Shown: piece after piece, positions 24,919-25,909 of the stretch
How the letters are laid out: every line of letters starts with the position of its first letter
How positions within the stretch are numbered: position 1 is the stretch's first letter
DNA from: a virus
Length of the DNA: 32,064 nt
Direction: 5' to 3' (one strand)
IMG/VR virus record: IMGVR_UViG_3300037184_000101
Location: 1-32,064 of that record
Translations under genes and position numbers: made by a program
Notes under the pieces: generated by a model
What the model was told of the DNA's origin: nothing
The model's database searches: none
The model's input: the letters and a program-made list of their open reading frames with translations, nothing else

Positions 24919-24997
24919 TGGTAGCACTGAGCGGAGTCGAACCGCCATAATTTCCAATTACAGTTACTTGTTTAGGAAACAAGGCTGGTACAGTGCC
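24919..24997 (-). tRNA. tRNA-like, atypical: Arg(CCT) anticodon hairpin, no canonical D-arm, D-loop-like motif in the extra arm
   Basis: Acceptor GGCACTG/CAGTGCT-A-CCA (G1:U72) and T-arm GGCGG-TTCGACT-CCGCT are canonical. Hairpin CTTGT-TTCCTAA-ACAAG starts only 7 nt after the acceptor. A 20-nt arm TAACTGTAATTGGAAATTAT follows. Confidence 0.45.
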
Positions 24998-25086
24998 ATT
25001 ATAATAATGGTAGTCGCATCTTTTCTCGATGTTTCAATCTCTTCCGCTATATGTATTTTTGTGATGCCAATACCGAAGGAGAACCA

Positions 25087-25824
25087 ATGAATACACTCAT
25101 AGACGAAAACATACTTAACGCTGCGAAATCAAGAGATTTAATTCCACTCAAATGCGGTATTTGTGGAAAAGAATTTTCCCGTCCAAAACACCAAATTCAG
25201 GCAAAATTGAAACACGGAGTTCAATTTTTTCGTTGTAGTAAATCATGCTATAAATCCAATGGAAAAATGGTAAATTGTTATACTTGTGGTTCTCCAATTT
25301 ACAAATCTCCCCGTGCATTGAGAACATCTGAGATTTACTTTTGCTCTCGGAAATGTTCATGCACCGAGGGAAATAAACAGAGATGGGAAAACCACGTTTC
25401 TGTTTCCAAAAACATAACCTGTGATTTATGTGGTTATTCCCGAGATTACAAAACGGAACATTGCCCTAATTGTAAAAGAATACAAAAGGATGAAGAGGAT
25501 AGAAAAATAACAATTGGGCGATTAAAACATAAATATAGAAACAATGGGCAATTTGTGCATTGGTATAGTTCAGAGGTAAGAGGTCTCAATCGGAAATGGA
25601 ATAAAGATTTGCTACAATTTCCCTGTCAAAGATGTGGATATAAAACTCACGTAGAATTATGTCATATTCATCCTATAAGTGAGTTTGAGGATTGTACTTC
25701 GTTGGGATACATAAATAGGAAAGAAAACAATCTCGTCCTATGCCCCAACCATCACTGGGAGTTTGACAACAAAATCATATCCCTTAAAGATATACCCAAT
25801 AGAACTCTTACTTCTGCTCTCTAA
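25087..25824 (+). CDS. HNH homing endonuclease with N-terminal YCSxxC zinc-ribbon modules
   Basis: AAGGAG SD 5 nt upstream of the ATG at 25087. C-terminal CQRCGY...ELCHIHPIS...NLVLCPNHH is an HNH motif. N-terminal FFRCSKSCY and YFCSRKCSC modules. Plus strand, among minus-strand tRNAs. Confidence 0.75.
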   Translation: MNTLIDENILNAAKSRDLIPLKCGICGKEFSRPKHQIQAKLKHGVQFFRCSKSCYKSNGKMVNCYTCGSPIYKSPRALRTSEIYFCSRKCSCTEGNKQRWENHVSVSKNITCDLCGYSRDYKTEHCPNCKRIQKDEEDRKITIGRLKHKYRNNGQFVHWYSSEVRGLNRKWNKDLLQFPCQRCGYKTHVELCHIHPISEFEDCTSLGYINRKENNLVLCPNHHWEFDNKIISLKDIPNRTLTSAL

Positions 25825-25826
25825 AA

Positions 25827-25909
25827 TGGTGGGCAAGGTGGGACTCGAACCCACGTTTTCATTTCCAACTATGCACATTCTGCTTAGAAGGCAGCGCCAG
25901 TACAAGCCC
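25827..25909 (-). tRNA. tRNA-like, atypical: Arg(TCT) anticodon hairpin, no canonical D-arm, D-loop-like motif AGTTGGAA in the extra arm
   Basis: Acceptor GGGCTTG/CTTGCCC-A-CCA has two U-U mismatches. T-arm GTGGG-TTCGAGT-CCCAC. Hairpin GCTGC-CTTCTAA-GCAGA follows 7 nt after the acceptor. A 24-nt arm ATGTGCATAGTTGGAAATGAAAAC follows. Confidence 0.4.

Follow-up and report, generated by a model that had tools for sequence, protein, structure and literature searches.

Arginine tRNA genes with a permuted D-domain in a phage tRNA array

The viral record IMGVR_UViG_3300037184_000101 was analysed over 32,064 nucleotides (nt), a stretch referred to below as the window, which encodes a baseplate-J-like protein and contains a phage-like array of 18 transfer RNA (tRNA) genes that ARAGORN places without exception on the minus strand, none of them for arginine. 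Two further elements, el1 and el2, also on the minus strand, carry arginine anticodons together with the acceptor, T-arm and CCA end of a tRNA, and have no D hairpin in the place where a cloverleaf keeps one. An earlier note on this DNA, made from its letters, took them for tRNA-like genes in which the D-arm was either missing or had changed places with the anticodon arm. The locus raises the question of whether an RNA of such topology can be a tRNA at all and, if it can, where its D-domain has gone. Comparison with a large family of relatives places one strand of the D-stem and the D-loop on the 3' side of the anticodon arm, with covariation to match, and on this evidence el1 and el2 are probably functional phage arginine tRNAs that would read AGG and AGA codons and whose permuted D-domain would fold into the normal L-shape.

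Two elements without a D hairpin

The first element, el1, is a permuted-D tRNA-Arg(CCU) at 24919-24997, 79 nt long including an encoded CCA (24919-24921) that follows the discriminator A24922, and its RNA reads GGCACUG UA CCAG C CUUGU UUCCUAA ACAAG UAA CUGU AAUUGGAA AUUAU GGCGG UUCGACU CCGCU CAGUGCU A CCA. All seven acceptor pairs form, G1-U72 included. Directly after U8-A9 (24990-24989) comes the strand CCAG (24985-24988), here called S1, followed by a single C and the anticodon arm CUUGU-UUCCUAA-ACAAG (24967-24983), which has five base pairs (bp), a 7-nt loop, U33, A37 and the anticodon CCU (24974-24976). Beyond the linker lies a second strand, S2, of sequence CUGU (24960-24963), which pairs with S1 as CAG/CUG plus one C.U mismatch and which runs into the D-loop-like strand A14 A15 U16 U17 G18 G19 A20 A21 (24952-24959). 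The final base ahead of the T-stem, U24947, stands as the 48-like partner of A15, and the T-arm GGCGG-UUCGACU-CCGCU occupies 24930-24946.

The second element, el2, is a permuted-D tRNA-Arg(UCU) at 25827-25909 (83 nt, with encoded CCA at 25827-25829 and discriminator A25830), reading GGGCUUG UA CUGG C GCUGC CUUCUAA GCAGA AUGU GCAU AGUUGGAA AUGAAAAC GUGGG UUCGAGU CCCAC CUUGCCC A CCA. Here S1 is CUGG, which together with C26 spans 25896-25900, and S2 is GU-G-CAU (25871-25876) with one bulged G; the D-stem pairs are U25899-A25872, G25898-C25873, G25897-U25875 and C25896-G25876, with G25874 bulged. The anticodon arm GCUGC-CUUCUAA-GCAGA (25879-25895) presents the anticodon UCU (25886-25888) in a 7-nt loop with U33 and A37, the D-loop-like strand A14 G15 U16 U17 G18 G19 A20 A21 lies at 25863-25870 with C25855 as the 48-like partner of G15, and the T-arm GUGGG-UUCGAGU-CCCAC lies at 25838-25854.

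The arginine anticodons, the T-arms and the encoded CCA ends are as the earlier note had them. That note had also credited both elements with canonical acceptor stems and with anticodon hairpins of five pairs and seven loop nucleotides, U33 and a purine at 37; this is right for el1 in full and for the loop of el2, and fails for the stems of el2, where the acceptor has U.U mismatches at 5:68 and 6:67 and the anticodon stem has four pairs and a G.A mismatch. The tandem U.U (window positions 25903-25909 with 25831-25837) is kept across the el2 sub-lineage (loci L190, L146, L003, L122 and L147), in which this conserved irregularity might be an identity or processing signal.

Just 5 nt separate A9 from the anticodon stem in either element, and the D hairpin of a cloverleaf is lacking there, as had been claimed. 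ARAGORN, run on the window, reported neither element, and no ordinary cloverleaf had been overlooked. Infernal, with the Rfam tRNA model RF00005, scored el1 at 31.1 bits and el2 at 29.0 bits, about at the curated gathering threshold of 29 bits, and got there only by deleting the D-arm, with 4 nt in place of its 15 positions, and by allowing an insertion of 17 or 21 nt in the variable region behind the anticodon arm. A covariance model built on the permuted architecture (R1) gave el2 79.9 bits and el1 69.0 bits, against 32.8 bits for the best canonical tRNA in the window. The acceptor with its discriminator and CCA, the anticodon arm, the T-arm and the core tertiary nucleotides, in permuted order, are all present; judged by these, el1 and el2 would be tRNAs by function and core and not cloverleaf tRNAs, with the D hairpin as the one feature wanting. 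Two other parses were discarded, the UUGGAAA stretch as an anticodon loop, which is workable for el1 alone and fails for el2, and the anticodon hairpin as an intron, after whose removal no anticodon would remain. A scan for promoters and terminators around the locus gave counts no greater than in shuffled sequence.

Covariation and core positions across the family

Relatives were sought in viral contigs, in metagenomes and in one genome each of 185,579 species, using a pattern that combined the end of an anticodon loop, the D-loop-like motif and a T-loop at a spacing too tight for a normal tRNA, along with covariance-model searches. Matches were then filtered solely on acceptor, anticodon and T-stem pairing, and R1 was run over all fetched loci, adding members that the pattern had not supplied. 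The family comprises at least 103 distinct sequences with the same architecture, so that the elements do recur in relatives, a check that the earlier note had proposed; counts below refer to these 103 unless another number is given. S1 was defined as the 4 nt after U8-A9 and S2 as the 4 nt right before A-R-U-U-G-G-A-A (R, purine), their columns being set by position only, with complementarity ignored.

Set in this way, the two strands prove complementary, in combinations as different as ACAG/CUGU, ACAA/UUGU, ACCA/UGGU, CCC/GGG, CUC/GAG and AUG/CAU. The central pairs form in 99% of the family when S1 and S2 are held in register and in 13-50% when S2 is slid by 1-3 nt, and in a set of 64 distinct sequences they are paired without exception through a variety of pair types: CG 39, UA 20, GC 3 and AU 2 at the first central pair, and GC 28, CG 19, AU 10, UA 6 and UG 1 at the second. 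Covariation is also normal in the three conventional stems (acceptor, anticodon and T), where 92.5% of cells are paired overall against 37-47% when slid. In the el2 lineage an apparent G.G mismatch resolves with a single bulged G, which adds two pairs (33/33 and 29/33), and the added pairs include switches from C-G to U-A. Because S1 leads directly into the anticodon stem it takes the place of positions 22-25, the 3' strand of the D-stem, and because S2 leads directly into A14 it takes that of positions 10-13, the 5' strand. The D-stem would then be formed across the anticodon arm, which it encloses, and the D-loop would be an open strand. Neither a missing D-arm nor an exchange of arms, the two options first put forward, describes this exactly, since only positions 10-21 have moved and 22-25 stays beside U8-A9.

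The 20-24 nt after the anticodon arm had also been taken for an arm in themselves. A local hairpin closing the D-loop motif was examined and rejected as the main structure: its first pair is fixed by the search, its second forms in 73% of sequences, its third in 42% and its fourth in 14%, and the segment is no self-contained arm, although an A22-like base may pair with U13. Nine distinct long members (L004, L064, L037, L057, L163, L208, L231, L128 and L159; subclass B) do possess an additional covarying stem, helix Y, with the sequences CCUU/AAGG, GGC/GCC, CGCU/AGCG, AGAC/GUCU, AGUC/GACU and GGUU/AACC. Helix Y spans from just after the anticodon stem to just before the T-stem, that is, from the start to the end of a variable arm, and crosses the S1:S2 helix to give a pseudoknot inside the tRNA; it is absent from el1 and el2.

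That the motif behind the anticodon arm acts as a D-loop, as the earlier note supposed, is borne out by its second base, which covaries without exception with the base before the T-stem, the two being A:U in 94 members and G:C in the other 9. One compensatory double change distinguishes el2 (G15/C48) from its close relatives L190, L146 and L003 (A15/U48), and the same A:U to G:C switch occurs within the Ile(GAU) lineage, between L139 and L161. By sequence, the two positions behave as the tertiary pair 15:48 does in a canonical tRNA. All 103 members keep U8-A9, the T-loop is UUCGA in 93 members and UUCAA in 10, and C56 is present throughout.

The D-loop strand also carries what appears to be an aminoacylation signal. 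For bacterial arginyl-tRNA synthetase (ArgRS) the chief identity element in the D-loop is A20, as established in E. coli, and it acts with C35, U36 or G36 and a purine at 73; el1 and el2 both match this set with A20, C35, U36 and A73. Among the 27 sequences free of the search motif TTGGAAA, A20 is found in 14/14 members with arginine anticodons and U20 in 10/12 with isoleucine anticodons. Such tracking of the anticodon's amino acid by position 20 would be expected only if synthetases read the RNA.

The new joins required by the permutation (9 to 22; 43 to 10 through 3-5 nt; 21 to 48 through at least one base) are plausibly short hops in the known three-dimensional structure, because in established tRNA geometry A9 contacts 12:23, position 45 contacts 10:25, and A21 adjoins 46-48.

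Nearly all relatives come from phage contigs, some of them of cultured phages, and the scan of 185,579 species' genomes yielded two real matches, both on contigs of metagenome-assembled genomes with phage-like tRNA arrays. Arginine anticodons account for 87 members (UCU 50, CCU 18, ACG 10 and UCG 9), which carry A20, and isoleucine anticodons for 15 (GAU 11 and UAU 4), with a single CAU, which may be Met or Ile2. The permuted architecture is thus maintained with six anticodons and one CAU and, because the isoleucine and CAU members share it, the scaffold is not restricted to arginine. These last members, at L046 6042-6121, L139 11274-11353, L142 2578-2657, L138 10988-11160, L126 620-695 and 1223-1301, L137 11737-11812 and 12641-12716, and L239 6774-6855, mostly have U20 in place of A20.

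A BLAST of the 6-kb region against GenBank phages turned up nothing closely related to the window, and a BLAST of the family members found copies in cultured phages. Pseudomonas phage PA11 has a permuted tRNA-Arg(UCU) (locus L244; NC_007808.1, 47672-47751, plus strand). The gene carries no annotation, and part of it overlaps the end of an HNH coding sequence whose entry notes similarity to T5 TflI. ARAGORN, run on PA11, gives no tRNA at all, and the sole Rfam tRNA match in that genome, at 38.7 bits, is the permuted element; PA11 has 44.8% GC, and AGA/AGG make up 41% of its arginine codons, compared with 26% for AGA plus AGG in the window. The permuted tRNA-Arg(UCU) also occurs in TC6, IME180, PSA11 and other podophages of P. 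aeruginosa, where it is the only tRNA-like gene. For TC6, a relative of PA11, the published description gives the tRNAscan-SE result as 'No intact tRNA genes' and the host as 66.35% GC (PMC6209634). In Alishewanella phage vB_AspM_Slicko01 (L243; OQ508956.1) a copy at 1496-1574, equivalent to record positions 17417-17495, has the loop CUUCUAA and the anticodon UCU and is entered in GenBank as 'tRNA-Ser', probably an isotype miscall arising from the long insert after the anticodon arm.

Proposed function, rival explanations and neighbouring genes

A permuted tRNA gene runs, from its 5' end, through the acceptor 5' strand, U8-A9, the 22-25 strand, position 26, the anticodon arm, a linker of 3-5 nt, the 10-13 strand, the open strand A14-R15-U-U-G18-G19-A20-A21, a linker of 2-9 nt with the 48-like base as its last, the T-arm and the acceptor 3' strand. 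In the fold that we propose, the D-stem would form across the anticodon arm and stack on it, as in a normal tRNA, while the open D-loop strand would still make the U8-A14, 15-48 and G18G19/T-loop contacts, by which the L-shape would be kept. Host ArgRS would charge the RNA through A20, C35, U36 and A/G73; the UCU species would read AGA and, by wobble, AGG, and the CCU species AGG. AGA and AGG are rare in GC-rich hosts of the kind that TC6 infects, and the phage would use its tRNA for these codons, which are common in its own genes. The permutation could persist as a neutral rearrangement that became fixed; we offer as a hypothesis that it persists because it lets the tRNA evade those host nucleases or quality-control enzymes by which tRNA shape, and the D-arm in particular, is recognised.

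Several observations weigh against this proposal. The S1:S2 helix is short, and its outer pairs are formed in just 32% and 59% of sequences; the outermost corresponds to 13:22, a pair that in ordinary tRNAs is often non-Watson-Crick. RNAalifold, applied to the family alignment, predicted the acceptor, anticodon and T stems only and not S1:S2, so that the D-stem, being short, was seen only by explicit counting of pairs. Folded singly by minimum energy, el1 and el2 do not take a tRNA-like form (z -2.0 and -0.5), with the qualification that such folding is frequently uninformative for tRNAs. In el2 the acceptor is weak, with 5/7 pairs, and the mismatched anticodon stem is a further defect. Most members were found by patterns demanding TTGGAAA and GGTTCGA, so that the constancy of G18, G19, A20 and A21 in the pattern-found members was imposed by the search, and, as the sequences share descent, fewer independent events lie behind them than the counts suggest. 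In arrays L022, L065, L079, L139, L142, L161 and L118 the permuted gene has a canonical tRNA-Arg(UCU) close by, and the permuted copy may there have a role beyond simple supply. Computation has shown the architecture, its covariation, the tie between anticodon and position 20 and the distribution of the family, whereas the folding, charging and decoding set out above are inferred.

The presence of those canonical copies leads to the alternative that survives best, which we nevertheless consider unlikely: that the RNA is not a decoder but a tRNA-like decoy or regulator. Resembling a tRNA closely enough to be bound by a host factor (ArgRS, a modification enzyme, an anticodon nuclease or a defence effector that targets tRNA, for instance), it would serve as a sponge or anti-defence RNA, or else stand beside the canonical gene as a spare that resists nucleases. 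The same arrays carry odd long-variable-arm tRNAs beside normal isoacceptors, which suggests a parallel set with a special role, and tRNA-targeting defences and rescue by phage tRNAs are documented (PMC12409363, PMC10802454). A decoy, however, would have no call for a wholly canonical 7-nt anticodon loop with U33 and a purine at 37, for a retained acceptor, discriminator and CCA or CCA-ready end, or for a position 20 that tracks the amino acid of the anticodon; nor does it suit PA11, whose only tRNA is the permuted one and whose arginine codons include so many AGA/AGG. A nuclease-resistant spare would still decode, and belongs with the functional tRNA that we propose.

Less probable again, in our judgement, is a true D-armless tRNA of the mitochondrial kind, with a short connector, an enlarged variable region or local hairpin, an incidental likeness to a D-loop and a flexible, non-L form. 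Infernal's best alignment handles the elements in just this way, a local hairpin can be drawn in some members (CAU/AUG in el2, for example) and its second pair is common, and bacterial translation can tolerate a tRNA without a D-arm (PMC11551756). What speaks for the permuted D-domain instead is that the central S1:S2 pairs hold at 99-100% through four to five pair types, whereas the local hairpin falls away at its third and fourth pairs, and that 15:48 covaries without exception; moreover U8, A14, G18, G19 and a canonical T-loop are retained here and are lost from the mitochondrial molecules (PMC7609411).

That el1 and el2 are functionless pseudogenes or rearranged fragments, decaying through homing-endonuclease activity in the array, is very improbable: an HNH gene does lie between them, ARAGORN misses them, their Rfam scores sit at threshold, and the TC6 report lists no intact tRNA genes by tRNAscan-SE (PMC6209634), but at least 103 distinct sequences on many contigs show compensatory changes in all four helices and the tertiary pair, keep the architecture with six anticodons and CAU, and include relatives free of the HNH gene in which both tRNAs are adjacent.

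The HNH endonuclease open reading frame (ORF) runs from 25051 to 25824 on the plus strand (PF13391, HNH_2, E = 4.6e-8), with a likely start at ATG 25087 just downstream of GAAGGAG, and occupies the gap between el2 and el1 on the opposite strand. At least 11 related loci have two permuted arginine genes 5-20 nt apart, and in all such pairs that could be parsed there is one UCU and one CCU copy, the UCU usually first; the pair in the window is likewise UCU then CCU, and lies 829 nt apart. Because HNH-free relatives keep both genes side by side, the HNH gene is an insertion in the spacer of a tandem pair. The two elements do flank an HNH gene, as described, but it forms no part of the tRNAs and does not serve them as a functional partner. 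In phage tRNA regions, that of T5 for example, free-standing HNH endonucleases are a frequent feature.

Other features of the window and of related arrays are recorded here in their own right. A second opposite-strand ORF (26362-27195, plus strand) matches phage endonuclease I only weakly (PF05367, 24.5 bits, below the cut-off of 29.1) and may be a further mobile nuclease that has entered the array. An 850-amino-acid ORF at 27745-30297 (minus strand) carries major-vault-protein shoulder and SPFH/Band 7 domains (PF11978, E = 7.6e-19), of a kind unusual in a phage. A34, which in bacteria is typically confined to tRNA-Arg(ACG), occurs in Val(AAC) at 22549-22622 (minus strand) of the window, and in Thr(AGU), Leu(AAG), Asp(AUC) and His(AUG) in L028, L046, L118 and L183. 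Related arrays (L022, L028, L046, L102, L118, L139, L142 and others) pair a normal-length tRNA with an 82-93-nt long-variable-arm tRNA of the same anticodon, the amino acids served being Asn, Cys, Thr, Pro, Gly, Lys, Glu, Gln and His, which to our knowledge never have long variable arms in bacteria. Minihelix-like elements of about 46 nt occur at L106 3542-3587, L127 1422-1467, L198 5309-5354, L131 61-136 and L155 3939-4014; they consist of GGGGCG, UAAUUGGAAAAGGxU, a T-arm and CGCCCCA, so that an acceptor stem, a D-loop-like strand and a T-arm are present and the anticodon arm is absent.

Comparison with known systems

The cloverleaf ranks with the most conserved of RNA architectures. A paper from 2024 states that all known bacterial tRNAs are cloverleaves and that those lacking an arm are restricted to mitochondria (PMC11551756). 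We found no account of a permuted-D topology in the literature searched, which included a 2020 review of non-canonical tRNAs, a coverage that is incomplete and could have missed an earlier report; arginine tRNAs of this kind are apparently previously undescribed. Taking the family as a whole, we lean towards regarding it as a natural, phage-specific class of translating non-cloverleaf tRNAs, some with a pseudoknot, that would keep the L-shape and be used by unmodified host synthetases and ribosomes, perhaps being maintained by evasion of host enzymes that recognise the D-arm; this would be the first internally permuted tRNA topology outside engineered molecules. If this is true, a natural lineage that has kept the core and rewired the order of its strands would indicate that selection acts on the L-shape and not on cloverleaf topology, and would offer structural biologists and code engineers an alternative scaffold, perhaps orthogonal to enzymes that read the D-arm. 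The family would also expose a blind spot in tRNA finders, by which phages of the PA11 type are reported as tRNA-free and the Alishewanella UCU copy is labelled tRNA-Ser. Since the culturable P. aeruginosa phages PA11, TC6 and IME180 carry the permuted gene as their sole tRNA, the proposal is directly testable.

The closest relation is the canonical tRNA-Arg (RF00005), with which el1 and el2 share a 7-bp acceptor, a purine discriminator, CCA, a T-arm with GGUUCGANUCC, a 7-nt anticodon loop with U33/A37, and U8, A14, R15:Y48 (Y, pyrimidine), G18, G19, A20 and A21. Like a canonical phage tRNA-Arg(UCU) they sit in a phage tRNA array, and probably serve the same AGA/AGG role. They differ in having no D hairpin between A9 and 26, positions 10-21 lying 3' of the anticodon arm, and in a D-stem that would enclose the anticodon arm and leave the D-loop open.

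Mitochondrial D-armless tRNAs, namely mammalian tRNA-Ser(AGY) and nematode tRNA-Ser(UCU), resemble them in the want of a usual D hairpin and in a short connector, and coincidentally also serve AGN codons (N, any base); they are flexible molecules, however, that have neither G18-G19 nor a canonical T-loop and that depend on adapted mitochondrial factors (PMC7609411). The phage molecules, by contrast, keep all the core tertiary nucleotides and the D-stem and would have to work with ordinary bacterial machinery; the loss of the G18-G19/T-loop nucleotides that marks the mitochondrial class is not seen in el1 or el2. Class II tRNAs and allo-tRNAs likewise have extra sequence between the anticodon arm and T-arm, and helix Y of subclass B stands at the site of their variable arm, but they keep a normal D-arm, whereas the extra sequence in the phage genes is the D-strand and D-loop itself (PMC5389517). 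The combination that defines class II, a D-arm with a self-contained stem-loop at 44-48, is found in neither el1 nor el2.

Circularly permuted tRNA genes in the red alga Cyanidioschyzon merolae provide a parallel for a non-canonical order of segments within a gene. There the whole gene is permuted and processing restores a normal cloverleaf; in the phage genes the ends are normal, with the acceptor strands at both gene ends followed by CCA, and the permutation is internal. As the canonical order could be regained neither by circularisation nor by processing of the ends, the mature phage RNA must retain the new topology. An artificial tRNA without a D-domain offers the final comparison: it shows that bacterial synthetases, EF-Tu and ribosomes are able to work with a tRNA that has no standard D-arm, but the degradosome degrades it, whereas the phage tRNAs are natural, with a D-domain that is not deleted but rewired.

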